A stretch of 64,000 bases of DNA from Candidatus Parcubacteria bacterium. GTDB lineage: Bacteria > Patescibacteriota > Minisyncoccia > UBA6257 > JAGOQP01. Positions 20,395-56,712 of the stretch are shown here, piece by piece. The number at the start of each line of letters is the position of its first letter. Within the stretch, counting starts at the first letter, position 1. The position numbers and the translations under genes are program-made. The notes beneath the pieces are model-generated. The model saw only the letters and a program-made list of their open reading frames with translations. It had not been told where the DNA came from and made no database searches. Location of the stretch: NCBI GenBank assembly GCA_025999395.1, contig AP024682.1:468680-532679 (forward strand). The letters are read 5' to 3'.

Positions 20395-20468
20395 GGAGGC
20401 TAAGCGGATTTGAACCGCTGCTAACAGGGCCACAACCTGTTGTGCTACCGGGCTACACCATAGCCTCC
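20395..20468 (-). tRNA. tRNA-His (GTG) with encoded G-1
   Basis: Hand-folded cloverleaf: anticodon loop TTGTGGC, G-1 pairs with C73 (a His identity element), T-loop TTCAAAT. Confidence 0.8.
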
Positions 20469-20550
20469 ATCATTTTTTCTTGATTTTACGCTATTTATTG
20501 ATAAAATCAAGAAAGCACAACAAATTCGTTTCTAGTAAAAACAAATTTGA

Positions 20551-20623
20551 GCCCCCGTAGCTCAATGGATAGAGCAGGTCCCTTCTAAGGACAAGATGAG
20601 GGTTCGATTCCTTCCGGGGGCGC
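20551..20623 (+). tRNA. tRNA-Arg (TCT)
   Basis: GCCCCCG acceptor, D-arm GCTC/GAGC, anticodon loop CTTCTAA, T-loop TTCGATT. Confidence 0.75.
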
Positions 20624-20686
20624 TTTTTTTATTGATTTTTTTTCATTCAATTGATATCTTTAAAAAGTAATTGAAAACAAAAAATT

Positions 20687-20761
20687 GCCGCGGTAGCTCA
20701 GTGGTAGAGCGCATGCCTGAAGAGCATGGCGTCGGGGGTTCGATTCCCTCCCGCGGCACCA
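20687..20761 (+). tRNA. tRNA-Phe (GAA), CCA encoded
   Basis: GCCGCGG acceptor, anticodon stem CATGC/GCATG with loop CTGAAGA, T-loop TTCGATT, 3' CCA. Confidence 0.85.
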
Positions 20762-21352
20762 ATGACAAAAAAACAAAAAAATAAACTTGTTTTTATTTTT
20801 ATCACCGGAAATAAAAATAAAGTTCTTGAAGCTCGTCAAATTCTCAAGGATTTCGAAATAAAACAATGTACCCTCAATCTTCCCGAAATTCAAAGCTTAA
20901 AGGTAGAAGAAGTTGTTAAAGAAAAAGCAAAAGAAGCTTTCAAGATAGTTAAAAAACCAGTTCTGGTTGAAGACACTAGTCTTGAAATCAAAGCTTGGAA
21001 TAACTTTCCGGGAGCATTAATTAAGTTTCTTTTAGAAAGTGTTGGGGTGCAAGGAATTATAAAAATGCTTTCTGGAGAAAAAAATCGCTTTGCTGTTGCC
21101 AAAACAGCGCTTGGTTTATACGATGGAAAAAATTTAAAGGTTTTTGTTGGAAAGATTGAAGGAACTATTTCCAAAAAAGTCTCTGGTAAAAAAGGATTTG
21201 GCTGGGACTCAATTTTTATCCCCCAAGGATTAAAAAAAACTTTCGCTCAAATGAATTCCGAAGAAAAAAACTCTCTTTCTATGAGAAGAAAAGCTCTTGA
21301 AAAAATGGAAAGGTATTTAATTAAAGTAAAGAAAAACACTTTAAAAAATTAA
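20762..21352 (+). CDS. rdgB: non-canonical purine NTP pyrophosphatase (RdgB/Ham1 family)
   Basis: FITGNKNK, EDTSLEI..NNFPGAL, GFGWDSIFIP and SMRRKAL motifs; ATG immediately follows the tRNA-Phe CCA; the longer track ORF from 20726 would overlap the tRNA. Confidence 0.8.
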   Translation: MTKKQKNKLVFIFITGNKNKVLEARQILKDFEIKQCTLNLPEIQSLKVEEVVKEKAKEAFKIVKKPVLVEDTSLEIKAWNNFPGALIKFLLESVGVQGIIKMLSGEKNRFAVAKTALGLYDGKNLKVFVGKIEGTISKKVSGKKGFGWDSIFIPQGLKKTFAQMNSEEKNSLSMRRKALEKMERYLIKVKKNTLKN

Positions 21353-21397
21353 GAGATTGAAATTGTTTTCTTTTTTGATAAATTTATAAGAGCAATT

Positions 21398-21468
21398 CGG
21401 GCCGTAGTGTAATGGTAGCACGAGTCCTTTGGGAGGATTTAGTCCGAGTTCGAATCTCGGCGGCCCGA
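21398..21468 (+). tRNA. tRNA-Pro (TGG)
   Basis: CGGGCCG acceptor pairing with CGGCCCG, anticodon loop TTTGGGA, A73 discriminator. Confidence 0.75.
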
Positions 21469-21475
21469 CAAAAAT

Positions 21476-21502
21476 AAAAACCTTCATTGATGAAGGTTTT
21501 TT
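21476..21502. terminator. bidirectional terminator hairpin between convergent tRNA-Pro and tRNA-Ala
   Basis: AAAAA-CCTTCA-TTGA-TGAAGG-TTTTTT. Confidence 0.6.
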
Positions 21503-21509
21503 AATTATG

Positions 21510-21583
21510 TGGACCCGATCGGGCTCGAACCGACGACCTCCTCGATGCCATCGAGGCGCTCTAGCCAACTGAGCTACGGGCCC
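21510..21583 (-). tRNA. tRNA-Ala (GGC)
   Basis: GGGCCCG acceptor with a G3:U70 wobble (the Ala identity element), anticodon loop ATGGCAT, T-loop TTCGAGC. Confidence 0.75.
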
Positions 21584-21679
21584 TTTTGAAAATTTAAGAA
21601 AATTTGATTTTACTAAAATAAATAATACAATAAGAGAAAATCAATTTCAACACAAAAAAGATAATCGGATTTTTTAAGA

Positions 21680-21754
21680 GCCCCCGTAGTTCAACGGATA
21701 GAACAGATCCGTCCTAAGGATAAAATGGAAGTTCGATTCTTCCCGGGGGCACCA
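21680..21754 (+). tRNA. tRNA-Arg (CCT), CCA encoded
   Basis: Close paralog of the Arg-TCT gene; anticodon loop GTCCTAA; 3' CCA. Confidence 0.75.
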
Positions 21755-21758
21755 AAAA

Positions 21759-21846
21759 GGAGGGTTGGCAGAGTGGTCGAATGCGCCGCACTCGAAATGC
21801 GGTTGGGGACAAAATCCCCTCAGAGGTTCGAATCCTCTACCCTCCG
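21759..21846 (+). tRNA. tRNA-Ser (CGA), class II with long variable arm
   Basis: GGAGGGT acceptor, anticodon stem CCGCA/TGCGG with loop CTCGAAA, variable arm GGGGACAAAATCCCC, G73. Confidence 0.8.
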
Positions 21847-23566: not shown

Positions 23567-25087
23567 TTACTGACGATTAGTATAAAAAGTAACCTGAAAG
23601 CTAACCAGATTACTCTCTAAAGGAGTAAGGCTGGCTAAAGGCAAATCGACTTTGCTTAAACCATTTATTTTCTCTAAGGACTTCTTAAACTCTACCGCTT
23701 CAGATTCAGAGGAAGCACGAGCATTAACAATAATAGGCACATCTGGAGATTGAATAAGAATTCTTTCAATTGTTATTTTATTTTCAGATGCTTTTTGATA
23801 AAGCTCTTCAATTAACCAAGCCCAGCGAGTTTGTTGAGATTTAACTGTAAGCGCTTTTTCCACCTTAAGATTAAAATCATTAGCTTCATTCTTTAGAGAA
23901 TTAAAATAAGCAGTGTTATAAGAAGAAGAAATATTAGATAAATCATTAGTTAAACTTTTAATAAAAAGGTTTAAGAAGATAAAAATCCCCAAGAAAGCCG
24001 TTAAAATCACTGATAAAGAAACGATTAAAATATTTCTCCACAAGCGAACAAAAGAAAGAACTTGGGAATGAAAAAATTGAATTTCAGTTCCCTCAGGAGC
24101 AAGGCTAATTTCTGTATCTTGAGAACGCGGAATTAAACCTCTTAAAGCCGCCCCTAATGCACAAGCAAAAGAAAGCTCTAAGGGATAACTTTTTATCTGA
24201 AACGGGAGAATTTGTAAGCTGAAATTATCCTTTAAAATTCCGCTAACCTCTTTTTCCAATCCGGGAGCAATTAAATAAACATTTTTAATATCCCTACTAA
24301 AGCGACTGGAATAAAAATTAATTACTCTATGAGTCTCCTGAATAACAAGATTTCGAAAATCAGCAAAAGAAATTTCTCTTTCCAAGCTATAATTACTTGC
24401 TACCGTGCTCCAAGAAGAAAAATGATTAAAGTAAAGAGAGTGTTTGTGAACAATAGAAAAGCTTAAACCATCACTATCAATATAAAGAACAAAAAAATCT
24501 TCTTCTCCCAAAGTATTTTTCTCTTCAAAATTAATTAAACGGATAATAGACATTGCCTTTTGTTCAATCGCCAAAGGCAAGAAATTGGCTTGAACAAGTT
24601 GATGATAAAAACTATCTACAATCTCCTTAGAAATGAAAGAGGAGAGAATTTCTATTTCATAATTAGAATTGGAGTGCAAACTTTCTACTTTTTGCCAATC
24701 AGAATAGGCTCGAGAAAAATCAAGAGGAGAAATAACCTGTAAATTAAGACGAACCGCTTCTTCCAAGTTTGCATCTTTTAAAAGAGGAAGAGAAAAAAGC
24801 TGGGTATAAACATTAGCATCAGAAAGAGAGACGATTACAGGAATTTTTTCTGATTCCTTTGAAGTAATTTGATGATGTAAGCTTTTGAGAGAATTGAAAA
24901 ATTCTTTGGGGTTAATCAGTTTTCCCTCTTCGATAACACCCACAGGAAACTTTAAAGAAAACTTTTGAAGTTGTCCTCTTTTTTCCCCGAAAGAAAAAAA
25001 AGTCAACCCGCTATCACTAATCACCAAACCGCCAATTTCTAAGTAGGGTTTTAAGAAGCGAAAAACTTTTTTTAAAAAAACACTCAT
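23567..25087 (-). CDS. pilM: type IV pilus assembly protein, PilM-like actin-fold ATPase fused to a PilN-like TM/periplasmic region
   Basis: PilM-like N-terminal 340 aa, TM helix ILIVSLSVILTAFLGIFIFLNLFI, about 130-aa C-terminal domain; heads the pilus locus. Confidence 0.6.
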   Translation of the reverse strand: MSVFLKKVFRFLKPYLEIGGLVISDSGLTFFSFGEKRGQLQKFSLKFPVGVIEEGKLINPKEFFNSLKSLHHQITSKESEKIPVIVSLSDANVYTQLFSLPLLKDANLEEAVRLNLQVISPLDFSRAYSDWQKVESLHSNSNYEIEILSSFISKEIVDSFYHQLVQANFLPLAIEQKAMSIIRLINFEEKNTLGEEDFFVLYIDSDGLSFSIVHKHSLYFNHFSSWSTVASNYSLEREISFADFRNLVIQETHRVINFYSSRFSRDIKNVYLIAPGLEKEVSGILKDNFSLQILPFQIKSYPLELSFACALGAALRGLIPRSQDTEISLAPEGTEIQFFHSQVLSFVRLWRNILIVSLSVILTAFLGIFIFLNLFIKSLTNDLSNISSSYNTAYFNSLKNEANDFNLKVEKALTVKSQQTRWAWLIEELYQKASENKITIERILIQSPDVPIIVNARASSESEAVEFKKSLEKINGLSKVDLPLASLTPLESNLVSFQVTFYTNRQ

Positions 25088-25118: not shown

Positions 25119-25616
25119 TTACTGAGCGGTGATTTCTTCAATCGACTCTAAAATTACTTGACCACTTAAAGGATGAAGATAAACTCGAGCTTTGTATTTT
25201 TTGTTTTTATTTAAAAAAGTTGCCAAAGAAACCACTTCGTATCTATCTGTCAAAGACGGCGTCCCACAACTTGTTCCCCCCAAATAAGTTAAATTTTTAC
25301 AAACCGTTATTTGAACAGGAATACTGGAGATATTTAAGTTATAAGAAGTACTTGAAGAAAAGTCATTGTGAATAATTCTTCTTAAAGCGTCGTTAATTCC
25401 CGAAAAAGCAGCAAAATTAACTAAATTTAAAATTCTTACTCCCAACCCTCCCTGACTAGCAAGATAAGAAATAAGAAGAGCAGCCAAAGCTATCTCAAAA
25501 ACAACCATTCCCACAATTAAAATCGAAGAAACAGCCAACGCCCCGCTCTGATTTTTTTTGTCAAGGAAATTAACTTTAACAACTTCTAATAAACTCACTT
25601 TTAAATTATAGCACAA
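25119..25616 (-). CDS. hypothetical membrane protein in pilus locus (possible PilO or minor pilin-like)
   Basis: One N-terminal TM helix; sits between pilM/N and the pilin genes. Confidence 0.4.
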   Translation of the reverse strand: MCYNLKVSLLEVVKVNFLDKKNQSGALAVSSILIVGMVVFEIALAALLISYLASQGGLGVRILNLVNFAAFSGINDALRRIIHNDFSSSTSYNLNISSIPVQITVCKNLTYLGGTSCGTPSLTDRYEVVSLATFLNKNKKYKARVYLHPLSGQVILESIEEITAQ

Positions 25617-25647
25617 GCAACAATTTTCAAAAAATTACTTTTAAAAA

Positions 25648-26127
25648 TTAAGGGTTGGTTGTTGTATTTTGATTAACAGAAGAACTAGAATCTAAGCTGC
25701 TGTTATTTGAAAAATTTTCAGGATAACTAGAGGAATTAGGATTGGAAATATTAACATTAGGATTTGATAAATTAGAGCTTTTACCAGAAACTAAAGAAAA
25801 AATCTGACTAGTAGGAGAAATTTTAGCTATCCAAACAACTTGATCTTTATTTATTTTGATTTTATCTTCTGGACCCCAAACTGATTGGTCAAAACGGCTA
25901 ATAGAAACCTCTCCTTGAGAATTAGTTCTTAGATACCAAACGTTTGAAAGACTAAGATAAGGAAATCGAGATAATTTTCCAAAATAAATGTCCCCTGTTT
26001 TTAGATAAACCGCATAATAATCATCAAAATCAAATTTGGAAAAATAAAAAAATAAAAAGACTGAAGTTAACAAAATTAAAAAAACTATTAAAAAAAACCC
26101 GATTAGAAAAACATTTCTTTTGATCAT
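25648..26127 (-). CDS. hypothetical membrane protein with N/S-rich C-terminal tail
   Basis: N-terminal TM helix, low-complexity NSS tail; pilus-locus context. Confidence 0.4.
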   Translation of the reverse strand: MIKRNVFLIGFFLIVFLILLTSVFLFFYFSKFDFDDYYAVYLKTGDIYFGKLSRFPYLSLSNVWYLRTNSQGEVSISRFDQSVWGPEDKIKINKDQVVWIAKISPTSQIFSLVSGKSSNLSNPNVNISNPNSSSYPENFSNNSSLDSSSSVNQNTTTNP

Positions 26128-26223
26128 ATTTCTTAAAAGTTAATAATAAAAAACAAACATCTAAATAATAATACATCAATAATAATACATCAAAACAGAA
26201 AAATCCATTAAATTTTAAATAAA

Positions 26224-27840
26224 TTAAGGAGACCAGTTAACTACAATTCCATCAACAGTGGGGCTTAAAGTATATCCTGAATCTGGAGAAAGAATAATTT
26301 TATATCGAAAATATCGATGATTATTATGATACTTTAAATTAATTTGAACAGGGATATTTGAATTATTAGGAGTATAATAAGTAGAACCAGAACCATCTGG
26401 ACCAAGATAATTCCAAGGGCCAGTAGAAGAATTAGAAGAAGCAATCTGAAATTTAACATTGGTGCCAGCGGGTTTTGTTCCTCTCCACATCAAAGAGTTA
26501 AAAGCTGCTCCTCCGTTTACTTGAGTATCGAAAGTAGAAGAGTACAAAATTCCATCAGAGCTTTTGTTGGTTATTTGTAAGGAAGAGCCGGCGCTAATAT
26601 TGCTTGCGGAAGAGTATTTATTATTTACTTCTGTAATAGGACCTTCTTGGCCACTTCCTCCCGACCAATCTTTTTGCCAAAAAACAAGATTTCTTTTTGA
26701 CCGAGTTAAATAAAAACTAATTTCATTCTTTCTTCCATTAGTCCAAACAACGGCACTAGTTATTTTTTGAGTCGAAGGATCATCATTATTTGAATTATAA
26801 GTTGACTCAATAACGCCATTTGTATCTCGAGAAACATTATCGACATAAAAATAACGATAATAAATCGAACTTTGATAAAGTTGTTTTATTTCATCAGAAG
26901 ATAAAACCCGATTATAAATACGGGCTTCATCAACAATACCAAAAGACATATAAGGACTACCACCACCAATCCTATAATCAGCAGTTCCATAATCTCTTAA
27001 AGGTTTTGTAATAGATGCTGTAGAACCAACTTGAGAACCATTAAGATAAAGTTTAAATTGATTATTAACTTCATCAACTGTCATCACTATATGATACCAA
27101 TTACCAACTGCTAAATTTTTACCACTGTAAATAACAGTATTGGTATTATCATAATAATAAATGACTGCTCTCAACTCTCCTGTTGATAAAGTATAAAACA
27201 AACCCAAATGATAGCCAGCTCTTAAAAAGATATATCCATCATACCCATTTTTAGGTAGTCCAGAAGGTTTAAACCAAACAGCAAAAGAAAAATTCCGACC
27301 ATCATCAGTTAAATCTTGTAAAGTAGAAGAATTGCCAGGAATAGAAACATAGTCATCTATTCCATCTAAACTTAGCCCCCTTCCGGCATAAGCAGTAGTT
27401 CTTAAAGGACTATTGATAAGAGTGCCATTGTTTCCATATCCAGAAAAGTCATAAGCAGTATTTCCTGATATTTCATCAAGTTTCCAATAACCAACAAGAC
27501 CAGCATTTATATCATTAGCCAAAACACTCTCCTGACCAGAAACAGCTGAAGTTAAAGAAGAACTAGAAACTAAATAAAATTGATTAGTTGACCCTTTGGC
27601 TAAATCATAGATGTTATGCCAGTTAGATTCAGCAAAGGAACTTATTTTATTTGAAAGTTCAGAAACTAAATTAGTAGCAATCTGATTTCCTCTTGATTCA
27701 AAGTTATTTCTAACAACACTTAAAATAGCAGCTGTTGCTGCTGCTAAAAGCAAACTTAAAACAGCCAGTGAAATTAAAATTTCTGCCAGCAGTTGCCCTT
27801 TTTCACAAGAAAATTTTTTTCTCAAAAAATCTCTTTTCAT
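26224..27840 (-). CDS. large type IV pilin-like protein with LamG (concanavalin A-like lectin) domain, 538 aa
   Basis: Class III prepilin-like N-terminus KGQLLAEILISLAVLSLLL (E at +5), LamG hallmarks GLVGYWKLDE.. and LSLDGIDDYVSIPG..ARIYNRVLSSDEIKQLY. Confidence 0.7.
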   Translation of the reverse strand: MKRDFLRKKFSCEKGQLLAEILISLAVLSLLLAAATAAILSVVRNNFESRGNQIATNLVSELSNKISSFAESNWHNIYDLAKGSTNQFYLVSSSSLTSAVSGQESVLANDINAGLVGYWKLDEISGNTAYDFSGYGNNGTLINSPLRTTAYAGRGLSLDGIDDYVSIPGNSSTLQDLTDDGRNFSFAVWFKPSGLPKNGYDGYIFLRAGYHLGLFYTLSTGELRAVIYYYDNTNTVIYSGKNLAVGNWYHIVMTVDEVNNQFKLYLNGSQVGSTASITKPLRDYGTADYRIGGGSPYMSFGIVDEARIYNRVLSSDEIKQLYQSSIYYRYFYVDNVSRDTNGVIESTYNSNNDDPSTQKITSAVVWTNGRKNEISFYLTRSKRNLVFWQKDWSGGSGQEGPITEVNNKYSSASNISAGSSLQITNKSSDGILYSSTFDTQVNGGAAFNSLMWRGTKPAGTNVKFQIASSNSSTGPWNYLGPDGSGSTYYTPNNSNIPVQINLKYHNNHRYFRYKIILSPDSGYTLSPTVDGIVVNWSP

Positions 27841-27851
27841 TTTAAAAAAAA

Positions 27852-29081
27852 TTAATAACTTTCATAAAGCTTTTTTATCTCATCTTCTGATAAGGCTCTG
27901 CTATAAATCCTAACCTCATCAACCAACCCATTAAAATGATCTGTTCCCACAGCTGATCCTTCTCTGTGAGCAATATGAATGGAACCAGTATCATTGTATA
28001 TGGAGCCGGTAGAAGTAGCTAAACCTTGAAAACTACCATCGACATAAATTTTTCTTTCTCCGGTTAAACTATCATAAGTACCAACAAAATGATGCCAATT
28101 TTGAGGATCATTAACAGTATAGCAAGGATTATACTGCCAAGTAGTAGTATAAATAATAAAACACATATTTTTACCTCCAGAAGCATTCGTTCCTAAAATA
28201 TAAGCCGAATACTTACTTACAATCTGATAAACTCCACTGTAACCAGTTGTCAAATTAGACTTAACCCAAGCAGAAACAGTAATAGCATTATTAGGATTTA
28301 TACTAGAAATATTTAAATAGTCATCAGTGCCATCAAAATTTAACGCCCCCCCTACTCTTCCTGAAAGACCGTTGTTCCATGCTTGACTAGTAGTTGTTTG
28401 AGTACCACTTGCTCCAACACTTAACAATCCATCTTTACTATAACCAGAAGCATCATAAGCATAACTACCGCTTGACTCATCCATTGGCCAGTAACCTACT
28501 AAACCCGATTCTTGCAAACTTCTTATTTGACCACTACTGCTAATAAAAATAGAATAAACATTATCTTTATTTTTTTGTTTTAAAGAAACTACCTGGGCAG
28601 CTGTTGGCTTTCCGGAAATTGCTGAAAAAGAAATAGTTTTGCTAAAACCAGGAGCTGGATTGGTTAATTCAGAAGCATAACTTAAAGAACCTCTTAAAAC
28701 TACAGAAGAAGTCGAATAACTAGGATCAGGAAAAATTTCGAAATAATCATCGGTAGAAGTACTATTAGTAAAACGAATACTCCAGCTACTTTTATTTTCC
28801 TGACTAATAGAACGTTGTTGAGTATTTCTAATAGATTCAACTACCTTCTCTACATCCAAATCAAAATTGCGTTTACTTTTATAAGAAGAAAAATTCACTA
28901 TTCCTATAGTTGCTAAAATCGCAATCAGACTAATGACAATAATTAATTCATAAAGAGTAAAAGCTTTTTCTTTCTTTATTAACTTTATTAAAAAACTAAT
29001 TTTGTTTTTAAAATTATAGAATTTAGTTAACCTATCTTTAATATTTCTTTCCATAAAAATAAAATCTAAAATTATTCTCAA
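27852..29081 (-). CDS. large type IV pilin-like protein with LamG domain, 409 aa (tandem paralog)
   Basis: KAFTLYELIIVISLIAILA prepilin-like helix; GLVGYWPMDE.., LNFDGTDDYLNIS, VRIYSRALSEDEIKKLY. Confidence 0.7.
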   Translation of the reverse strand: MRIILDFIFMERNIKDRLTKFYNFKNKISFLIKLIKKEKAFTLYELIIVISLIAILATIGIVNFSSYKSKRNFDLDVEKVVESIRNTQQRSISQENKSSWSIRFTNSTSTDDYFEIFPDPSYSTSSVVLRGSLSYASELTNPAPGFSKTISFSAISGKPTAAQVVSLKQKNKDNVYSIFISSSGQIRSLQESGLVGYWPMDESSGSYAYDASGYSKDGLLSVGASGTQTTTSQAWNNGLSGRVGGALNFDGTDDYLNISSINPNNAITVSAWVKSNLTTGYSGVYQIVSKYSAYILGTNASGGKNMCFIIYTTTWQYNPCYTVNDPQNWHHFVGTYDSLTGERKIYVDGSFQGLATSTGSIYNDTGSIHIAHREGSAVGTDHFNGLVDEVRIYSRALSEDEIKKLYESY

Positions 29082-29102
29082 CTATTTTTAACTTAATAAA
29101 AA

Positions 29103-30311
29103 TTAAAAAGAACTGGTTAATTGATAAACTGGAATAATAACCGCTAAAGCGATAATTCCAACAATTAATCCAATTAACATCAACATCACCGGCTCAATAA
29201 AAGAAACCAATGTTTTTACGGAAGATTCAACTTCTTTGGCGTAAAAATCAGCCAGAGTCGCTAAAATATTTTCAATATGGCCTGATTTTTCTGAAACCGC
29301 AATTAAGTTTGAAACTACTTTTGGAAAGAATGGTTCTTTGCGAAAAGCTTCCCCCACCGTTAAACCCCGGGTAATTCCTTCTCGAGAAATTCTTAAAAGA
29401 GCATTCTTTAATTCCGGCAATCCTACTGAATCAGCGGTAATTTCCAACGCCTCAATAATCGGCAAACCCGAACTAAGTAAAGAAGAAAGAGTGGCTGCAA
29501 ATCTTTGAAGAGAAATTTCTTTAAGCACCCGGCTAATCACTGGCAACCTTAAAGCAAGGTTAAAAAGAAATTTTTTCCCTACCAAAGTTTTAAAAAAGAA
29601 AAGAAATCCTCCAAAAATTAAAAGCCCCAACAAAGATAAAATTAAAGCCAGATGATTTCCAATAAAAAGACCAACTGTAAAAACAATTCTTGAGAAAGTA
29701 GGAGGATTCATTCCCCCGGAAAGAAAAACAGTTGCGATTTTAGGCAAAGAAAAGCTTACTAAAAGAACCAAAACCAAAATAGAAGCAAAGAAAAGAATAA
29801 TTGGATAAGTTAAAGATGATTTAATTTTGCTGTTAAGTTCCCTTTCTTTTTCTAAAGAGGTACTCAATTGATCAAAAACTCTTTCTAGGTTTCCCGAAAC
29901 TTCCCCTGCCTTAATAAGATTAACAAAAACCTGAGAAAAAATTTTGGGATAATGAGCAAAAGTAGTATAAAAAGGCTGCCCTTTTTCTAAACTGGAACGC
30001 ACCTCTAGAAGCAAAGATTTAACTGCTGGTTTATCAAAATCTTCTATTAGAATATCAATCGCCTTAAAAAGATCGGTACCTACTTTTAACATCAAGGAAA
30101 GATACTTAGTAATAAAAACTTTGTCCTCAAGAGTAATTTTCTGATGAACCAAGGCACCAACTTGGAAAGAAAATCTTTTAATCGGCTTAATTAAAATAGG
30201 CTTTAATCCCATCGAAGCAACTTTGGCAATTGCTTCAGATGATCCCTGAGCCTCAATTTCTCCTTCGGCTATTCTGCTGTCTGGGCGAACTGCTTTATAA
30301 TAAAAACGCAT
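29103..30311 (-). CDS. pilC: type IV pilus inner-membrane platform protein PilC (GspF family)
   Basis: Duplicated GspF domain architecture, three TM segments, 402 aa. Confidence 0.85.
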   Translation of the reverse strand: MRFYYKAVRPDSRIAEGEIEAQGSSEAIAKVASMGLKPILIKPIKRFSFQVGALVHQKITLEDKVFITKYLSLMLKVGTDLFKAIDILIEDFDKPAVKSLLLEVRSSLEKGQPFYTTFAHYPKIFSQVFVNLIKAGEVSGNLERVFDQLSTSLEKERELNSKIKSSLTYPIILFFASILVLVLLVSFSLPKIATVFLSGGMNPPTFSRIVFTVGLFIGNHLALILSLLGLLIFGGFLFFFKTLVGKKFLFNLALRLPVISRVLKEISLQRFAATLSSLLSSGLPIIEALEITADSVGLPELKNALLRISREGITRGLTVGEAFRKEPFFPKVVSNLIAVSEKSGHIENILATLADFYAKEVESSVKTLVSFIEPVMLMLIGLIVGIIALAVIIPVYQLTSSF

Positions 30312-30378
30312 AATTTTATTTTTTGATTAAATTTTTAATTGGCAATTTCAAAAAATCAACTAATAACTATTTAAAAAA

Positions 30379-32091
30379 TTATTCCCGAATTACTCTCAAG
30401 ACTTCTTCAATGGTAGTTTGCCCCAAAGAGGCTTTCCTTAATCCATCTTCAAACATTGTAACCATTCCATTCTTTTTAGCAGCCATTGTTAAAAGGTCTA
30501 AAGAAAAATCTGGGCTAACAATAATCTTTCTAATATCTTCATTTACCTCAAGTAATTCAAAAATACCCATTCTTCCTCGATAACCAGTTCCCCCACAAGA
30601 TTTACAACCTTTCCCTCGATAAAGAACTCGAGGAATATTTGAATCAGGTAAGTTTAGACTTTTTATTTGTGTTCTTAAAGAATGAAGGAAATCTTCCGAA
30701 GGAGAAAAAGACTCGATACAATCAAGACAAATTTTTCTTACCAAGCGTTGTGCCAAAACCATATTTAAAACCGCCGCTACCAAAAAAGGGGGAATTCCCA
30801 TATCAATTAACCGCGGAACAGCGGTGGGAGCATCGTTGGTATGAAGAGATGACAAAAGTAAATGTCCAGTTAAGGCCGCATTAACAGCAATTTCAGCGGT
30901 TTCTTGGTCTCTAATTTCTCCTACCATAATAATGTTTGGGTCTTGCCTTAAAATAGAACGCAACCCCGAAGCAAAAGTGATTCCCGCCAAAGGATTAATC
31001 TGCACCTGATTGATATACTTGATGTTATATTCAATCGGATCTTCGATAGTAACAATGTTTACTTCCGGCCGATTCAACATATTTAAAATAGAATACAAAG
31101 TAGTAGTTTTTCCCGAACCCGTGGGCCCAGTTACCAAAATCATCCCGTAAGTTTTTTTAATATTTTCCTCTACTATCTTTGCCGTCTCTTCGGTCATTCC
31201 TAACTCAATTAAAGAAAGAGGTCTTTGAGTAGCGGGAAGAAGCCTTAAAACAATTTTTTCTCCATACAAAGTGGGAATTACTGAAACTCTGACATCAATT
31301 ACCGTTGATCCGACTTTATAACGAAAGCGTCCGTCTTGGGGTTTTTGGTGTTCATCTACTTTTAAGGAAGCTAAAAGTTTGATGCGAGCAACAATGGCTG
31401 GATGAACTTCTTTAGGAATCTGAAAAACTTCGTGTAAAATTCCATCAATTCGAAAACGCACTAAAATACTATCCTCCATAGCTTCTAGATGAATATCGGA
31501 AGTGTTTAAAGAAGAAGCGTAAGAAAGAGTGTTATTAACAATTTCTACTATTGGAAGCTGAGTAGCCGCTTCTTCTTCTTTAGAAGCGCTAATTTTCCTC
31601 TCCAAAGAAGCTTTGATATTTTCTTCAATTAAACGTTTGAAATCTTGAGTCAGCTGAGAACCATAAGCGGAAAAACCAAAGGCTAAATCATCATCAGAGG
31701 CCAAAAAAGGTCTAATTTTGGAAGATAGTTTTTTTTCTAAAAATTCTATAGTTATTAAATCGGTTGGATCTGCCATTGCCAAATCGATTGTTCCGTCTCC
31801 TTCTTGAGCAAAAGCGATAACATTTTTTTCTCGAGCAAATTTTTCTTCAATTTTATAAAGAACCTCTCGATTAATTCCTCGATACCTTAAATTAGCCAAT
31901 TCTACCCCAAAAAAATTAGAAGCTAAATGAAGTAGAAAATCCTTAGTAACAAATCCTTTAGAAATCAAAACATCTCCTAAATCTTGATTCATTCGGCGCG
32001 CTTCTTCTAAAGCTTGGTTGAAATCTTCTTCCTCAATTAATCCTTGTTCTAAAAGAAAAGTTTTAAGTTTTTGAGAAGGAATGGGTACCAT
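30379..32091 (-). CDS. pilB: type IV pilus assembly ATPase PilB (GspE family)
   Basis: Walker A GPTGSGKTTTLYS, Asp and His boxes, tetracysteine CLDC..CKSCGG motif. Confidence 0.9.
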   Translation of the reverse strand: MVPIPSQKLKTFLLEQGLIEEEDFNQALEEARRMNQDLGDVLISKGFVTKDFLLHLASNFFGVELANLRYRGINREVLYKIEEKFAREKNVIAFAQEGDGTIDLAMADPTDLITIEFLEKKLSSKIRPFLASDDDLAFGFSAYGSQLTQDFKRLIEENIKASLERKISASKEEEAATQLPIVEIVNNTLSYASSLNTSDIHLEAMEDSILVRFRIDGILHEVFQIPKEVHPAIVARIKLLASLKVDEHQKPQDGRFRYKVGSTVIDVRVSVIPTLYGEKIVLRLLPATQRPLSLIELGMTEETAKIVEENIKKTYGMILVTGPTGSGKTTTLYSILNMLNRPEVNIVTIEDPIEYNIKYINQVQINPLAGITFASGLRSILRQDPNIIMVGEIRDQETAEIAVNAALTGHLLLSSLHTNDAPTAVPRLIDMGIPPFLVAAVLNMVLAQRLVRKICLDCIESFSPSEDFLHSLRTQIKSLNLPDSNIPRVLYRGKGCKSCGGTGYRGRMGIFELLEVNEDIRKIIVSPDFSLDLLTMAAKKNGMVTMFEDGLRKASLGQTTIEEVLRVIRE

Positions 32092-32187
32092 ATAATGAAA
32101 AGTATTTTCTTTCTGTACTTTTTATTTTAACACAAATTTAGGCTTAAAAAAACAAATTGCCAAGATTTTTGTTTAAAATTAGATGAA

Positions 32188-32218
32188 ATAAAAAAGAAAA
32201 CGCCTTTCAAAAGGCGCT
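32188..32218 (-). terminator. strong rho-independent terminator after the major pilin gene
   Basis: Minus strand GCGCCTTTTGAAAGGCG followed by TTTTCTTTTTTATTT. Confidence 0.7.
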
Positions 32219-32248
32219 TTCTAAAAAAGAGTTGAGCAAACTTTACAA

Positions 32249-32794
32249 CTATAAGTCTAATCCCGGCTCCGTTCCAACTTCATAAATGGTGGTAGAATTG
32301 CCACCGTCGTTTCCTTCTTTGTCATTTGTTCCACCAGAAGAATATTTGGCACTTTCTAAATCAGCGTTTAATTCAAAAGTTAAATTTGTTGCATCTGCAT
32401 CCCATGCATAATGATAAGTACCATCATTTATTGGATCTCTAGGCCACGCAGAAATGGGTGGTGGAGGACTTGTCATTGCTGTTAAATCGACTCCTACCCA
32501 ACCATTATTAATAGCAAAACCCCTAGTTGAACAAGTTCCAACTAAACTATAACAACTTCCAGTAGCAGAAGCAAAAGGACCGGATGTCAAAGTAGGATTT
32601 GAAACTGTCGAAAGATACAAAGCAACCACACTTTTCACAGTATCTAAATCAGACATTCTTTGAACATCACGCGCTTGTCTTAGCAATTCCGCTGGGTTAA
32701 GTACTACTACCACTGCAGCTGCCAAGATGGCCAAGATACCAATAACTACCAACAATTCTACCAAAGTGAAACCCTTTTTATTTTCTTGATTCAT
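32249..32794 (-). CDS. pilA: type IV major pilin (PilA-like)
   Basis: Canonical prepilin leader MNQENKKG|FTLVELLVVIGILAILAA. Confidence 0.85.
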   Translation of the reverse strand: MNQENKKGFTLVELLVVIGILAILAAAVVVVLNPAELLRQARDVQRMSDLDTVKSVVALYLSTVSNPTLTSGPFASATGSCYSLVGTCSTRGFAINNGWVGVDLTAMTSPPPPISAWPRDPINDGTYHYAWDADATNLTFELNADLESAKYSSGGTNDKEGNDGGNSTTIYEVGTEPGLDL

Positions 32795-33555: not shown

Positions 33556-35105
<1,550 letters not shown>

Positions 35106-35371: not shown

Positions 35372-35399
35372 TTGACTTTAAATTACTTTCTTGTATTAT
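35372..35399 (+). promoter_or_regulatory. sigma70-like promoter candidate for rpmE (TTGACT-N16-TATTAT)
   Basis: TTGACT at 35372-35377 and TATTAT at 35394-35399 with a 16-nt spacer; rpmE ATG at 35433. Confidence 0.4.
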
Positions 35400-35432: not shown

Positions 35433-35702
35433 ATGAAGAAAGATATCCATCCTACCTATTATCCAGACGCCAAAGTAGTTTGCGCTTGCGGAAATACTTT
35501 CACTGTTGGCTCAACCAAAAAGGAAATTAAAGTTGAAATTTGCTATGCTTGCCATCCTGCTTACACTGGAAAAGAAAAATTGATTGATACCGCTGGCCGA
35601 GTAGAAAAATTTAAAGCTAAAAGAGAAAAGGCAGCCAAAGTTACTACCCGAAAAAAGTCAGAAAAAAGAGCCGCTAAAAAAGTAAAGAAAGAGAAAAAGT
35701 AG
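35433..35702 (+). CDS. rpmE: 50S ribosomal protein L31
   Basis: [10 protein letters not shown]..CxCG..CxxCHP zinc-ribbon L31 signature. Confidence 0.9.
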
Positions 35703-35755
35703 CTCTTCGAAAAAATTCATTTTAAAACAAGTTTTAAACTTGGTTTTTTGCTTTT

Positions 35756-36490
35756 ATGGAAACAATCAACAAAATTGTTATAGAAATTCGAGCGGGCGCG
35801 GGAGGAGATGAAGCAGCAATTTTTGCGGGCGATCTGGTTAATATGTATCAAAAATATTCCCAAAAGAAGGGGTGGAAATTTACGGTTCTTGATTTTAATA
35901 AAACCTCTTTGGGTGGCTATAAAACTTTCATTGGTAAAATAGAAGGTCAAGGAGTTTATGACGAACTCAAGCAAGAATCGGGCGTTCATCGCGTTCAAAG
36001 AATTCCTAAAACTGAAAAATCAGGCCGCATTCACACTTCCACCGCCTCCGTAGCTATTTTACCGATCGTCGAACCAAAAGAGATTCAAATCAATGAAAAC
36101 GATTTAGAAATTACCTTCTCCCGCGCCGGAGGGCCCGGAGGACAAAATGTTAACAAAGTAGAAACTGCCGTCAGAATTCTTCACAAACCCACCGGGATTG
36201 TAGTCTCTTCTCGGGAAGAACGTTCTCAACACGCTAATCGAGAAAGAGCCTTAGAAATTTTAAGAGCTAAACTTTATGAAATTCAAAGAGAAGAACAGGA
36301 AGGAAAACTAACCGCTGAAAGGCGAGCTCAAATTGGCTCTGGTGAGCGCTCCGAAAAAATCAGAACCTATAACTTTCCCGAAGACAGAATTACCGACCAT
36401 CGAATTGGCAAAAAATTCCACAACATTGAAAAAATTTTAGACGGCGATTTAGAGCCAATAATTGAAGCTTTCAAAAATCAAAGAAAATAA
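35756..36490 (+). CDS. prfA: peptide chain release factor 1 homolog lacking N-terminal domain 1 (244 aa)
   Basis: Begins at the domain-2 motif [19 protein letters not shown]; RF1-type tripeptide region [14 protein letters not shown] (PxT); GGQ motif ([11 protein letters not shown]); only 53 nt separate it from rpmE, so no space for domain 1. Confidence 0.8.
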
Positions 36491-41004: not shown

Positions 41005-42270
41005 CTACTTTGACCAAATATTTTCCGGATCAAGGTAACCTTTAATGAGATTTTCTTTAATTAATTCCTCCATCTTTTCCCAGCCAACAAAAGAAGCAAA
41101 AATTTTATTCCACAGAGATTCTTGATGATGGTAAAGATATTTTACCATCTCCTTATTTTGGACCAAAGACATCGTGATATCAACCAGATTAAAGCTCACC
41201 AATACTTCTACTCCCGTTTCGGTAACAAAATAATCTCCCACCCAGTTAAGATCTTGCCAAAAATCAAAATTTTTTAATCCTAAAGAGTTTCCCAAAAGAG
41301 AAATACCCCTTTCGGCTTTTTCCCAGTGAAGAGCTTCGGGGTTCACATGAGGAAAACTCAGGCGCCAATCATTTTCATCATCTTTAGCTAAGTATCTTTG
41401 AATAATGAGCCAGTGATTATCTTTAACAGCATTGCGATCATCAATAACATCTCCCCGAATAAGAGAAGATAAAATGTCAGCAAAGACTTTCTCTGGCTGA
41501 AGAGCAGCCTTCTTAAAAAGTTCTGAATAAAAAGAAACTTCATTAAGATAATGAATAAGTAAGGCAACTGTTCTCATCAGCTGTCCCTTGGCTTCTATTT
41601 TGGTTGGAAGAATAAAAATTACTCCCAGTTCCTTAAGATGACTAATATTGTGATATTTCTTCTTCATAAAAGAAGTGGCAATCTCCTGCCATCTTTGATC
41701 TAAAGTAATAATTTCAATTTTTCTTTCTTCAAAATCCGAGGGAGATAAAGAAAGATAATGAGGCAAAAGTTTTTGATTTATCCAATCCCCTCCCTCCACA
41801 AATCTTAAAGCTGCTCCAATTTCCTTCCAGTCGTAGCGCTCAAACATTTGAGTAACCGAATCCAAACCCAACACTTCTAGAAGCTTTTGAGGAGGTTGAG
41901 CTTCAAGAATTCTAATAAAGCTTTCTTTCTTTAAAAAAAAGCCGTCAGGGAAAGAAAAGCTCTTTTCTAAGTAAGAGACAATGTCTAAACAACCTTGATG
42001 AAGATGACAATCAGGATAATTCATTGCCCGATTCAGAGAAGCATCATCTTTTTCCAGACGAGTTATTAAAGCCTGATAAACCTCTTTTGCCGAAGCAGAG
42101 AAAGAAAGATTAAGATCGGCTAAAACTTGCTTAATTCTTTCTTCGTTTTCCTTAGCAATTGTTTCAATAACTTTTGATTTCTTTGACAATCTCCCCAAGT
42201 AAGCCTCCAAAAAATAAATCACATCCTTATCGGTTCTTAAGATTCGAGCAATTTTTCTTAAATAATCCAT
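41005..42270 (-). CDS. hypothetical protein (421 aa) embedded in sugar-phosphate metabolism cluster
   Basis: Long ORF, no recognisable family; flanked by fba and pfkB-family kinase on the same strand with short gaps. Confidence 0.55.
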   Translation of the reverse strand: MDYLRKIARILRTDKDVIYFLEAYLGRLSKKSKVIETIAKENEERIKQVLADLNLSFSASAKEVYQALITRLEKDDASLNRAMNYPDCHLHQGCLDIVSYLEKSFSFPDGFFLKKESFIRILEAQPPQKLLEVLGLDSVTQMFERYDWKEIGAALRFVEGGDWINQKLLPHYLSLSPSDFEERKIEIITLDQRWQEIATSFMKKKYHNISHLKELGVIFILPTKIEAKGQLMRTVALLIHYLNEVSFYSELFKKAALQPEKVFADILSSLIRGDVIDDRNAVKDNHWLIIQRYLAKDDENDWRLSFPHVNPEALHWEKAERGISLLGNSLGLKNFDFWQDLNWVGDYFVTETGVEVLVSFNLVDITMSLVQNKEMVKYLYHHQESLWNKIFASFVGWEKMEELIKENLIKGYLDPENIWSK

Positions 42271-48794: not shown

Positions 48795-51104
48795 CTATCT
48801 ATTTAGAATGCGTTTTATAACATTCAAAATACTTTTAATAGAAAAAATAGATTGCTGAAGAGATTCTAAGGAAAGAGGAGTACCTGTAGAAGAAGTTTTA
48901 AGATCAGAGGTGGTTGCTTTAGTTCCTACTGATCCTTGTTGAGGTAAAGGACGAGGATCTTTAAGAGTAAGCTTAACCACATCAATTGAGGCGGGATGAA
49001 TCTGAAAGATAGCAAAGGTTTTATCATCTACTTGTTGGAGGTGAGCATCCACCAAAATTTCTCCATTATAATTTAAGCCAGAAACATCGGCTGGAATAAT
49101 TTTAAGATTTCCATCATCACTAACTAATCCAACAGCTAGTGGTGCATAATAGAGCAACATATCACTTGAAGCAGATGATGGATCAAAACCAAAGCGATCA
49201 AGTTTTATTTTATTAACATCTCTTAATAAGACAACCCCATTATAAGCATGATTTCCAAAAGAATAATCGTTCAATTCCCCAAAGCGCGTCAGATCACCAA
49301 TAAATGCTATAGGCAAGGATTTAGTAAGTTCTTTAAATGGAGAAAACTTTGAATTAAGACCACAGGTTTTTCCAAGACCACTCGGCGGTGATTTGAGATC
49401 ATCCTCACACAAAGTATAACGGGAAATAAAGTTAAAACCACCTTCATTATTGAGTTTACGTATAATAACCCCGTTACGATAGCGATAGGAAGCGTCGGTT
49501 GGCCACTCTGGTCTTTTATGAATTCCAAATATTACATAAGCGAACTCCGCATTTTGATGATCATAATCATGAGAGAAAAAGTCGTAAATATACCCTTTAA
49601 CCTTATCTACTTCCAAACTTCCCCTATCAACATAAATTCTAACATCTTCAACTTCTGAAGCGTCGGGAAAATGAAGTTGGCCATTTAAACCACTTAATTT
49701 GAATGCTCCAATGAAAACAGGAATGCTGGGATTTGTAAGGTCAAAAACAAGAATATTTGACTCGTGTGTAGCATGCTGACGACCTCTTGAAACTGAAACA
49801 TTAGCTAAATAATACAGCTTACCTCCTTGATTTACAAAAAAGCTACCAGTAGCACCAACTTGATTAATAACACCCCTTTCTCTCATTAGTTGAGGAAGTT
49901 TATCTAAGCTAATTTTCCCTCCAGGCCTTAAATAAGGAGAACTATAACTTTGATTATCTGTAGCGATTACCTCAGCAACCTTAGAAAAAGTTTCTGATGT
50001 TACATCGAAAATCTCGAAATTAAATTTATTAGCCACTTTTTCTCTATAAGTATTCCCAATTGCGTATACCTTCCCATCAATACCCCTAAAAAGGCTAAAC
50101 AAATAAATACGATCATCATCGTTTTTGCCAGAATTTTCATCCTTGATTTCAGAAATACTCCAATCGGGATTGATTTTAAAAGAAACTACTGTAGCGCCTC
50201 CACTTCCAGGTACTAGAGAATAAATAACGGGATGATCATCAACAACTAGAAGAGGTGGTCTGTAAAATCCGATAAGTTGAACTGCTACTGCACCCCACAT
50301 TTGACCAGTTATCGAATCTTGATCATTGGGAATAATTTTTTCTCCCAGCAATCGAGGATTAAAGGGATTACTAATGTCGTAAATAGAAACCTTTATTCTT
50401 TTAGGAAAAGCTGTATAGCCAGTTTTTGAGTCAGAATGCGATGTTATCACCAGCATCACCTTTTTATTGTATAAACTAAAGAAAGCTACTTTGCTTATTC
50501 TCTCAGAGATAGTTTGTCCAGGCAATAAACTAAAAGGGTAAGCATAGTTATCACCATCTTTTAGTTCAATTAACTTTTTGATAAATTGAAAAGAACCAAG
50601 AGAAGAATTCACTTCGGTAATTTGAGGAGAGGCGATGGAGGGACGATCAGCTGAAACTATTATTTTTTCTTCCTTATAAAGTAACCAGGTGCAGGTAATT
50701 TTGTCAGAGGGTCCCTTAATTTCAAAAGCCGGACAAGAACTTCCCTTTTCTTTGTAATCTCCTAAATGAGTGGTATAACCTCGACTAATAATCTCCTCTA
50801 ATCCTTTAACCTGAGCTCGATAACTTCCGGGATCAAGATAAATGGGTTGACCTAAGGGAAATTCACCGATTTTTTTATTTTGAAGAAAAGCAAAGCTATC
50901 AGTCGATTTCGTTTCTGTCCAGATTTCTATCTTCACTTTTTGAGGATTAGGAATGGGCTCGTCTTCAATAAAATTTGTTCCTTGCCAATGGCCAAGTTTA
51001 ATAAAATAAGTAAAAGTTCCTCCTGTTTCAGCTTTAATAATTGAGGGAAGGTAAGAGAAAAGAAGAGAGGATAAAAGAAGAAGAAGATTAAGAGATTTTT
51101 TCAT
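48795..51104 (-). CDS. large secreted hypothetical protein (769 aa)
   Basis: Signal peptide MKKSLNLLLLLSSLLFSYLPSIIKA; beta-rich, possibly beta-propeller; no known motif. Confidence 0.55.
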   Translation of the reverse strand: MKKSLNLLLLLSSLLFSYLPSIIKAETGGTFTYFIKLGHWQGTNFIEDEPIPNPQKVKIEIWTETKSTDSFAFLQNKKIGEFPLGQPIYLDPGSYRAQVKGLEEIISRGYTTHLGDYKEKGSSCPAFEIKGPSDKITCTWLLYKEEKIIVSADRPSIASPQITEVNSSLGSFQFIKKLIELKDGDNYAYPFSLLPGQTISERISKVAFFSLYNKKVMLVITSHSDSKTGYTAFPKRIKVSIYDISNPFNPRLLGEKIIPNDQDSITGQMWGAVAVQLIGFYRPPLLVVDDHPVIYSLVPGSGGATVVSFKINPDWSISEIKDENSGKNDDDRIYLFSLFRGIDGKVYAIGNTYREKVANKFNFEIFDVTSETFSKVAEVIATDNQSYSSPYLRPGGKISLDKLPQLMRERGVINQVGATGSFFVNQGGKLYYLANVSVSRGRQHATHESNILVFDLTNPSIPVFIGAFKLSGLNGQLHFPDASEVEDVRIYVDRGSLEVDKVKGYIYDFFSHDYDHQNAEFAYVIFGIHKRPEWPTDASYRYRNGVIIRKLNNEGGFNFISRYTLCEDDLKSPPSGLGKTCGLNSKFSPFKELTKSLPIAFIGDLTRFGELNDYSFGNHAYNGVVLLRDVNKIKLDRFGFDPSSASSDMLLYYAPLAVGLVSDDGNLKIIPADVSGLNYNGEILVDAHLQQVDDKTFAIFQIHPASIDVVKLTLKDPRPLPQQGSVGTKATTSDLKTSSTGTPLSLESLQQSIFSIKSILNVIKRILNR

Positions 51105-55542: not shown

Positions 55543-56712
55543 CTACCTAATTAATGCCTTAAGCTCTTCTTTTGTTTTTTCAACAATTTTTTCCTGAATT
55601 TTATTTACTTCTTCATTGGTTAAAGTTCTTTCTGGAGAACGATAGATGATTCTAAAGGTATAACTTAATTTATCCTTACCAAACTTCTCATCGTTTTCAT
55701 ATTTATCCAACATTTTAACTTCCTCCACTAATTCTCCAGCACAATCACGAACAATTTCATAATAATTGTTAAGACTCATATTTTTGGGCACAATAAAAGA
55801 AATATCTCGATAAGTCATCGGGAATTTGCTCACTTCACGATAAATACTATCAATGCTAGTAAACTGACTAGTGATGCGCGGGTCATTTGACCAAAAAATT
55901 CTGATATCGGGAATTTTCATTTTAACCATTGCCAATCTTTCCAAACCAAAACCAAAGGCCCAACCATTGTAAATCTCTGGATCAATTCCAAGATTTTTAA
56001 GAACCTGATTATGAACTACTCCTGCCCCTACCACCTCCAGCCATTTTTCTTCTCCACCATCGCTTTCAATTTTGATTTCTACTTGAGTGCTGGGATGCGT
56101 AAAAGGAAAAGTATCTTCTAAAAATCGGAAAACTACTTTCTCGCCATAAATTGCTTTTACAATCTCTGAAAGCACTTCTTGAAGCTCGGGAATGCCAATA
56201 ATTTTTTTATCTCGCCGACATAAGTAAAGCCCATCAACTTGATGAAAAACCGGGAAATGATTCCTGTCAATTTCGTCTTTCCGGAAAACCTTACCATAAC
56301 TTAAGAGTCCAATTTCCCCTTCTTCTTGAAGCTTCTTTTTAGCATCTTCTCTTTGAAGATAAAAAGTCCACATTACCGTGGTTTGGGTTCGCAAAACATA
56401 ATCTTTGCTGACATAATAAGTGTCTGTTTCTCGGCGACTAGGATGATCTAAAGGAGTATTAAGCAAATCAAAATTATCCCGAACGCTTACAATCTCTGGA
56501 AATTCAATAATGTCAAAGTCTTTAAAAGCTTCAATTGAAAGAATCTTTTCAACAATAAACTTTAGAGGCGAATTTTCTTTCCTTGTAAGATCAGGAAGAG
56601 ACAAAAGTCTTTTTATTCTTGTTGCTTGAATATCGTCTCTTTTTTTTAGTTCTTCTAATAATTGATCGCTAATTGGATCTTTAGCAACAATATATTCGCG
56701 TTTCATTTTCAA
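55543..56712 (-). CDS. pheS: phenylalanyl-tRNA synthetase alpha subunit
   Basis: Class II motifs incl. FRFLEDTFPFTHPS.., motif 3 GWAFGFGLERLAMV. Confidence 0.85.
   Translation of the reverse strand: MKMKREYIVAKDPISDQLLEELKKRDDIQATRIKRLLSLPDLTRKENSPLKFIVEKILSIEAFKDFDIIEFPEIVSVRDNFDLLNTPLDHPSRRETDTYYVSKDYVLRTQTTVMWTFYLQREDAKKKLQEEGEIGLLSYGKVFRKDEIDRNHFPVFHQVDGLYLCRRDKKIIGIPELQEVLSEIVKAIYGEKVVFRFLEDTFPFTHPSTQVEIKIESDGGEEKWLEVVGAGVVHNQVLKNLGIDPEIYNGWAFGFGLERLAMVKMKIPDIRIFWSNDPRITSQFTSIDSIYREVSKFPMTYRDISFIVPKNMSLNNYYEIVRDCAGELVEEVKMLDKYENDEKFGKDKLSYTFRIIYRSPERTLTNEEVNKIQEKIVEKTKEELKALIR

Follow-up and report, generated by a model that had tools for sequence, protein, structure and literature searches.

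Can a bacterium terminate translation with a housekeeping release factor 1 (RF1) that has no N-terminal domain? Of all the parts of bacterial class-I release factors, domain 1 is the least well understood; docking onto the uL11/bL12 stalk and interplay with RF3 have been proposed as its roles. The question is raised by a prfA gene in a 64,000-nucleotide stretch of DNA from a Candidatus Parcubacteria bacterium (GenBank assembly GCA_025999395.1, contig AP024682.1, positions 468,680 to 532,679 of the forward strand), which we refer to as the window and number from its first letter. An earlier note on this DNA, made from the sequence alone, had placed an RF1 homolog without domain 1 at 35703-36490. 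The open reading frame (ORF) is real, but it starts at 35756, position 35703 being the first base past the stop codon of rpmE. We interpret its product, with a probability of about 0.8, as the housekeeping RF1 of a Parcubacteria/Paceibacteria bacterium, in which the whole of domain 1 has been lost by deletion.

The identity of the protein was assessed with profile hidden Markov models (HMMs). It covers positions 100-194 of the 194 positions of the Pfam PCRF profile (E 8e-44) and positions 4-116 of the 116 positions of the Pfam RF-1 profile (E 1e-41). Against the two NCBIfam prfA models it scores 369.9 bits (TIGR00019, positions 113-350 of 361) and 378.7 bits (NF001859, positions 105-341 of 347). 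Both scores fall short of the respective equivalog cutoffs (423.25 and 400), as the protein offers nothing to match one third of the profile, the part that corresponds to domain 1. The prfA family is nevertheless the best match by more than 125 bits, with prfB (TIGR00020) at 241 bits against a cutoff of 370, prfH (TIGR03072) at 86 bits against a cutoff of 166.65, and the ArfB profile at 56 bits against a cutoff of 100, the last of these through the GGQ region alone (positions 8-42 of 140). An RF2 identity is ruled out by the score to prfB and by the presence of PKT instead of SPF. The view of the earlier note that this is an RF1 homolog with a PxT region and a GGQ loop, and neither ArfB nor PrfH, is borne out by these scores and by the RF1-type decoding residues that the protein has kept.

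Alignments to structures in the PDB define the missing part. Residues 7-241 align without gaps to residues 107-341 of Thermus thermophilus RF1 (an offset of +100), residues 8-239 to residues 112-344 of Escherichia coli RF1, and residues 3-237 to residues 84-318 of Thermotoga maritima RF1. Roughly 105-112 N-terminal positions of the RF1 profiles, which make up domain 1, are missing. The complete absence of this domain, as claimed in the earlier note, is thus what both the HMM alignments, whose matches begin only at position ~105-113, and the PDB alignments indicate. Compared with canonical RF1 (T. thermophilus 4V63, E. coli 2B3T and T. maritima 1RQ0), domains 2-4 are 44-52% identical and free of gaps, and the PxT, GGQ, alpha5-tip and His/Thr/Gln decoding residues and the compact fold are the same; the rpmE-prfA neighbourhood is also found in many bacteria. 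The window protein differs from canonical RF1 in having no helical domain 1 (~105-112 residues, 83 in T. maritima) and in having a more basic core.

The 19-residue motif of domain 2 occupies residues 8-26 of the window protein and the 14-residue PxT region occupies residues 82-95. By the offset to T. thermophilus RF1, residues Q81, P84, T86, H93 and T94 correspond to Q181, P184, T186, H193 and T194. In established RF1-ribosome structures, G116 and E119 at the alpha5 tip of the T. thermophilus factor read the first base of the stop codon, and the RF1 Gln, PxT, His and Thr residues (Q181, P184-x-T186 and H193/T194) read bases 2 and 3. In an alignment of 38 members of the clade, G16, G17 and E19 are invariant, as are Q81, P84, T86, E87, H93 and T94. 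An AlphaFold model of the window protein, built on 38 relatives, has a mean predicted local distance difference test (pLDDT) score of 83.4, with low confidence in the GGQ loop (126-133) and in residues 185-199, which are probably the switch loop. The model superposes on the free, compact, ribosome-unbound form of T. maritima RF1 (1RQ0) with a query-normalised TM-score of 0.86 and a root-mean-square deviation of 2.5 A over 242 columns. The window protein is confirmed to consist of RF1 domains 2-4 without domain 1.

Could a gap in the assembly, a chimeric join or a wrongly called start have cost a normal prfA gene its 5' part? The sequence is derived from a metagenome-assembled genome (MAG), and the databases do contain artefacts in this family: one long relative (P0040, 323 amino acids) owes its extra 80 residues to an out-of-frame read-through of the rpmE tail, a bad gene call, and two others (P0121 and P0122) carry internal duplications. 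Against this stands the recovery of the exact protein and of the same rpmE-53 nucleotides-ATG arrangement in four independent assemblies (the NCBI MAG GCA_026419535.1, two Logan assemblies and one ENA assembly). Within the locus, a TAA in the prfA frame at 35735-35737 limits any N-terminal extension to at most six codons, none of which is a start codon, and three-frame translation revealed no capacity to encode domain 1 in any frame of the 53-nucleotide spacer, in agreement with the earlier note. The best 120 database relatives (named sources include Candidatus Parcubacteria, Paceibacterota, Wolfebacteria and Liptonbacteria) are 71-80% identical to the window protein and, apart from P0040, 237-253 amino acids long. 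The 119 truncated homologues begin within 10 residues of the position at which the window protein starts, close to the IEIRAGAGG strand (within ~10 residues of it in the alignment of 38 relatives).

The same truncation was found in a scan of GTDB with one genome per species, in which the best 80 RF1 loci were collected by a pattern search that was not exhaustive. For each locus we measured how far the frame stays open upstream of the aligned core, and scored a domain-1 HMM. Ten loci (L001-L010; 62-76% identity; Jorgensenbacteria, Liptonbacteria and Patescibacteria) have no domain 1, with at most 34 open codons upstream of the core. The exception is L007, whose 77-residue "extension" overlaps rpmE and gives no match to the domain-1 HMM, and was rejected as a domain 1. 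Related genomes therefore share the truncation (119 of the 120 best homologues in addition to the ten GTDB loci), and an assembly error, which the earlier note had named as a possible refutation, is excluded by the four assemblies and the 119 independent truncated homologues. We consider an artefact of this kind exceedingly improbable.

The conservation of the gene also bears on whether it is a decaying pseudogene, with UAA and UAG termination carried out by something else. Reduced genomes shed genes, the prfA equivalog scores are under their cutoffs, and the NCBI names are vague: the relatives are annotated as "PCRF domain-containing protein" and the exact window protein as "hypothetical protein". 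However, an alignment of 38 species-level relatives at 70-80% identity has 82 invariant columns that include every decoding and catalytic motif, the ORFs are intact throughout, and neither a frameshift nor a motif loss was seen in these close relatives. In the window, TAA and TAG are the stop codons of 54 of the 55 ORFs of at least 100 amino acids, so RF1 activity is indispensable in this organism. Decay of the gene is hardly credible in the face of these observations.

Coordinates of the truncated prfA gene, its functional motifs and its surroundings in the window.
Feature	Position	Strand	Basis or description
prfA without domain 1	35756..36490	+	ATG start, TAA stop; 244 amino acids; domains 2, 3 and 4 only
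alpha5 tip, G16-G17-D18-E19	35801..35812	+	+100 offset to T. thermophilus RF1 G116...E119
Decoding segment, Q81...P84-K85-T86...H93-T94 (RF1-type PxT "anticodon")	35996..36037	+	Direct sequence reading
GGQ (G128-G129-Q130), peptidyl-tRNA hydrolysis motif	36137..36145	+	Within an invariant block of 11 residues
rpmE (bL31, 89 amino acids), directly 5' of prfA	35433..35702	+	Pfam Ribosomal_L31, E 7.7e-30
rpmE-prfA spacer, 53 nucleotides	35703..35755	+	Direct reading and three-frame translation
Promoter-like TTGACT-16 nucleotides-TATTAT, 5' of rpmE	35372..35399	+	Consensus scan, 10/12 matches
16S rRNA gene, divergent from rpmE-prfA	33556..35104	-	Rfam SSU_rRNA_bacteria, 1446 bits, full length

A more serious alternative is that a full-length prfA gene lies elsewhere in the genome and that the window copy is a specialised paralogue, accessory or rescue-type in the manner of PrfH or ArfB. 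Only ~12% of the genome is visible here, and PrfH proves that paralogues without domain 1 exist (PMC1586002, PMC6514570). The score of the window protein to prfA, however, is far above those to prfH and ArfB, and all of the RF1 residues that read stop codons are kept. The gene also sits where prfA is expected. In most of the candidate phyla radiation (CPR) and cyanobacterial loci that were examined, rpmE lies at most ~250 nucleotides upstream of prfA, whether prfA is truncated or not. The truncated gene thus stands in the ancestral position of prfA, which in other CPR bacteria and cyanobacteria is taken by full-length prfA. This adjacency upholds the use of rpmE-prfA synteny as a housekeeping mark in the earlier note. 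The neighbours of prfA are rpmE and a gene for an SLT-domain protein, no rtcB was found within 10 kb on either side, and no other rescue partner is nearby. By tblastn, neither the window nor the 10 kb on each side of prfA in the 80 GTDB loci yielded a second release factor gene, and the same set of loci, collected by the non-exhaustive pattern search, contains no second RF1 locus for genomes of the clade. Genomes of ~0.6-0.8 Mb rarely retain duplicates, which also counts against a paralogue. On the strength of synteny and conservation, it is highly probable that the truncated copy is the only prfA gene in the genome, and we regard an accessory or rescue role for it as unlikely.

The surroundings of the gene are those of a chromosomal locus. 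No terminator-like site was found on the + strand between rpmE and prfA, for which reason the two genes are probably co-transcribed, with a predicted start near the promoter-like sequence at 35372..35399. The divergent 16S rRNA gene marks a chromosomal housekeeping neighbourhood. This 16S rRNA gene is itself solitary: it is preceded by a strong promoter-like sequence (TTGACA-16-TG-TATACT, 35278-35251) and followed by a response-regulator gene, and 23S and 5S rRNA genes are absent from the whole window, meaning that the rRNA genes are unlinked.

To place the loss of domain 1 in an evolutionary context, we compared domain 1 lengths across the GTDB loci and constructed neighbour-joining trees of the RF1 core, without bootstrapping. 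The ten truncated loci form one group in these trees. The domain-1 HMM matches 68 of the 80 GTDB RF1 proteins and none of these ten. Outside the truncated group, L011 has a full domain 1 of 122 residues, and L055 and L023 have 101-110 residues; RF1 proteins from outside the CPR have 103-132 residues. These relationships mark the truncation as the derived state. About 12 other Parcubacteria (among them RAAC4_OD1, Kaiserbacteria, Taylorbacteria, Nomurabacteria and Minisyncoccia) have a shortened domain 1 of 72-82 amino acids from which helix alpha1 is missing. Domain 1 of T. maritima RF1 is comparably short, so this intermediate form is not new. The RF1 proteins with a short domain 1 have a basic core and rpmE-prfA synteny in common with the window protein and are its nearest cellular relatives with a reduced N-terminus, but they retain 72-88 residues of domain 1 where the window protein has none.

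These intermediates also bear on the possibility that the gene was split, with domain 1 encoded separately and acting in trans with the 244-amino-acid protein. A split is conceivable, as the helical domain 1 is attached flexibly (PMC1586002). However, when the window and the flanking loci were translated in six frames and searched with an HMM built from 68 domain-1 sequences, no match was better than E 0.45, and intermediates in which domain 1 is shortened yet still fused point to erosion and not to fission. A split gene is thus very unlikely, and we return to the loss of domain 1 by deletion.

Complete loss of domain 1 appears, from the sequences compared, to have occurred at least twice. In a search seeded with L021 from Nomurabacteria, 49 of the 120 matches listed are 248-290 amino acids long. 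In 48 of these 49 truncated forms a common peptide, M(D/N)W(Q/E)(E/K/D)(W/F)KK..., is joined to the linker of domain 2, and the remaining one (P0380) begins directly at the domain 2 strand. Nomurabacteria siblings that are 80-85% identical to the truncated forms keep 75-88 amino acids of domain 1. By its different junction, the Nomurabacteria subgroup represents a second, independent loss. In a third truncated lineage (P0124; 10 JGI contigs, 60% identical), a GTG start codon overlaps the rpmE stop by 4 nucleotides; it may be another separate loss, and in the tree it falls beside the window clade and L011. The loss is fixed in a large clade that includes Wolfebacteria, Liptonbacteria and Jorgensenbacteria, and it belongs to a broader shortening of domain 1 among Parcubacteria, from ~105-120 to ~72-82 to 0-25 amino acids.

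Two further observations were made on the truncated lineages. The Nomurabacteria forms (L021, 6294-7103; P0288-P0405) carry a Trp-rich N-terminal peptide, MDWQEWKKSQ..., and a similar peptide, YDWKQWQNYQ, is present in L010 (9929-10732), the basal member of the window clade. This peptide could be a convergent or a retained mini-motif in place of domain 1. In the third truncated lineage, the adjacent gene encodes an EF-Ts of 131-149 amino acids (L208, 4408-4803; L210, 2404-2853), about half the usual bacterial length, another reduced translation factor.

Truncated class-I factors have been described before in several forms. Truncations of RF1 and RF2 engineered in E. coli (Mora et al. 2003, as reported in PMC1586002 and PMC6076264) have the same architecture of domains 2-4 and retain codon specificity and peptide release in vitro, but they are artificial and were made in an organism that has RF3, from a full-length ancestor, whereas the deletion in the window is natural, fixed across a large clade and known from sequence. 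PrfH (RFH) is likewise a natural class-I homologue without domain 1, of ~200-230 amino acids (PMC1586002, PMC6514570); unlike the window protein it has neither PxT nor SPF, is distributed sporadically and is coupled to RtcB. ArfB/ICT1 has the GGQ domain in common with the window protein, but it has no codon-recognition domains and ends in a basic C-terminal tail. A review of release factor evolution gives PrfH and ArfB as the only reduced forms (PMC6514570), and in the open full-text literature we found no description of a natural housekeeping RF1 without domain 1, in the CPR or elsewhere.

Besides the engineered E. coli deletions, the nearest precedents are, unexpectedly, viral proteins. RF1-like proteins from IMG/VR (loci such as L217, L228 and L279) are ~220-240 amino acids long, start at the same domain 2 motif (IEIRAAEGG), have PPT and GGQ, and match prfA best among the NCBIfam families, below the cutoff. 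Their identity to the window protein is no more than 34-47%, and they are encoded on viral contigs, whereas the window gene is chromosomal and its product nests among CPR RF1 proteins. As a separate observation, 67 of the 80 viral-contig matches (L216, L217 and L223-L290; for example L228, 3977-4654, and L217, 6001-6693) are RF1-like without domain 1, mostly ~220-240 amino acids long, with PPT(E) and GGQ, and in 60 of these 67 genes an in-frame TGA falls exactly at the conserved Trp of "KKGW". Such a pattern points to phages in which TGA is read as Trp, or else to an expression switch that depends on TGA.

The 55 ORFs of at least 100 amino acids in the window end in TAA (39), TAG (15) and TGA (1). 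In the set of 56 genes, there is no in-frame TGA in 17,980 codons, compared with 938 out of frame, so that the earlier note was right to assume the standard genetic code, with TGA not used as a sense codon. The sole TGA stop (1 of 56 ORFs) is that of nusB, at 3470-3472 on the - strand. The share of TGA is low even for a GC content of 35%; unrelated low-GC loci average ~8% TGA. With a single TGA stop among 55-56 ORFs and TAG at 27%, we considered whether RF2 had been lost and TGA left unassigned. This idea was set aside as unsupported in view of the low-GC average and of the relatives with truncated RF1, in which TGA accounts for 14-32% of stops, a share that rises with GC content; the prfA gene of L004 itself ends in TGA. 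As these relatives use TGA stops, RF2 activity is very likely to be present in the clade. We also looked for a truncated RF2; none was found in an arbitrary set of 80 metagenomic RF2 loci collected with the pattern GVHRLVRxSPFD, among which there was no recognisable CPR contig.

How might an RF1 without domain 1 work? We propose that in the decoding centre domains 2 and 4 would recognise UAA and UAG by means of the alpha5 tip, PKT, Q81 and H93/T94, and that domain 3 would place GGQ in the peptidyl-transferase centre, upon which the peptide would be released. The factor would bind and leave the ribosome without a contact between domain 1 and the uL11/bL12 stalk; its departure would be either spontaneous or brought about by subunit rotation, and any interplay with RF3 would not depend on domain 1. 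Selection on domain 1 may have been relaxed, for example through the absence of RF3. The natural protein should decode UAA and UAG and hydrolyse peptidyl-tRNA normally, because an engineered E. coli RF1 without domain 1 is still active. As stated in PMC1586002, which cites Mora et al. 2003, deletion of the N-terminal domain of E. coli RF1 leaves codon specificity and release in vitro unchanged, and the protein works in vivo. The same article describes RF3 as non-essential and missing from small genomes. In the cryo-electron microscopy work of PMC6076264, a C-terminal domain of bL12 forms a bridge between uL11 and domain 1 of RF1, and binding of RF1 is promoted by bL12; direct contact between RF1 and RF3 is described as absent and RF3 as able to recycle RF1 without domain 1. 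The proposal of the earlier note that a factor without domain 1 would change how termination and recycling work has to be softened accordingly, since by these accounts (PMC1586002, PMC6076264) the engineered E. coli factor is both active and recyclable by RF3.

The charge of the protein offers a further clue. The core formed by domains 2-4 has a net charge of +5.3 in the truncated proteins and +4.6 in those with a short domain 1, compared with -1.3 in full-length RF1 proteins of other phyla, while domain 1 has a net charge of about -9 to -11. Removal of domain 1 thus makes a basic factor out of an acidic one. A basic core would favour binding to rRNA without domain 1. The basic core predates the loss, as the relatives with a short domain 1 also have it, and it may have permitted the loss. 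We looked for compensatory substitutions specific to the clade, but found just six positions, all weakly diagnostic (L102, K108, F121, P127, I141 and I224), and this candidate explanation was rejected.

Several points weigh against our interpretation. The ribosomal protein uL11 (15068-15520, - strand) keeps both of its domains, including the N-terminal one, meaning that the stalk partner of domain 1 has not visibly degenerated alongside it. The sequence that was searched amounts to 64 kb of a contig of ~569 kb together with flanks of ~7 kb, and a second, full-length prfA could conceivably lie beyond it. The activity, the start site and the expression of the truncated RF1 are read from the sequence only. 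Finally, the terms "monophyletic" and "independent", as applied to the losses, rest on unbootstrapped neighbour-joining trees, on the junction peptides and on the 80-85% identity among Nomurabacteria.

The gene order around uL11 is itself unusual. At 14371-16416 (- strand), secE-nusG-rplK is followed by a gene for thymidylate kinase where rplA, rplJ and rplL are expected, and the genes for uL1, uL10 and bL12 are therefore away from their usual place beside uL11. This arrangement is of relevance because it is with bL12 and uL11 that domain 1 of RF1 interacts on the ribosome.

Other features of the window are unconnected with prfA. The phenylalanyl-tRNA synthetase (PheRS; 55543-56712, - strand) is a single chain of 389 amino acids with a catalytic core of the alpha type and an FDX-ACB anticodon-binding domain. 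In the PDB it is matched best by the monomeric PheRS of human mitochondria (3CMQ and others, E 2e-56) and not by bacterial alpha subunits, and pheT is not adjacent to it. A type IV pilus-like cluster at 25119-32794 (- strand) encodes a PilB-type ATPase, a PilC-type platform protein, N-methyl pilins and large Laminin_G_3 proteins, and after it come several ORFs without a Pfam match. Other ORFs, of 421-769 amino acids and likewise without a Pfam match, are located at 23567-25087, 41005-42270 and 48795-51104. Seven tRNA genes, on both strands, lie within 1.5 kb at 20395-21846.

The truncated RF1 is a natural, clade-wide variant of a well-known factor and not a new kind of system. Hundreds of database sequences indicate that this clade has dispensed with domain 1 in what is apparently its only RF1, with sister groups in an intermediate state, and domain 1 appears to be dispensable in the window bacterium and its relatives. 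Owing to the vague names given to these proteins by NCBI, automated surveys may score prfA as missing in such genomes. A wider and more tentative idea, which we consider doubtful, is that a large branch of the Patescibacteria has a minimal form of termination, with class-I release factors that lack domain 1 and hence the stalk contact, no RF3, and perhaps a reduced RF2. If it were true, the repeated, stepwise erosion of domain 1 (from ~110 to ~78 to 0 amino acids, at least twice) would be the trace of selection that was relaxed once recycling or the factor-binding site of the ribosome had changed, and the clade would provide a series of natural knockouts with which to address the role of domain 1, which has long been debated. 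Interest in the finding would rise if RF2 were also truncated, or if the loss tracked changes in RF3 or the ribosomal stalk. As an evolutionary deletion series, the lineages described here can be correlated with the presence or absence of RF3, the stalk proteins and the GTPase-associated centre of the rRNA. They also add a reduction at the level of a translation factor to the known reductions of the CPR ribosome.

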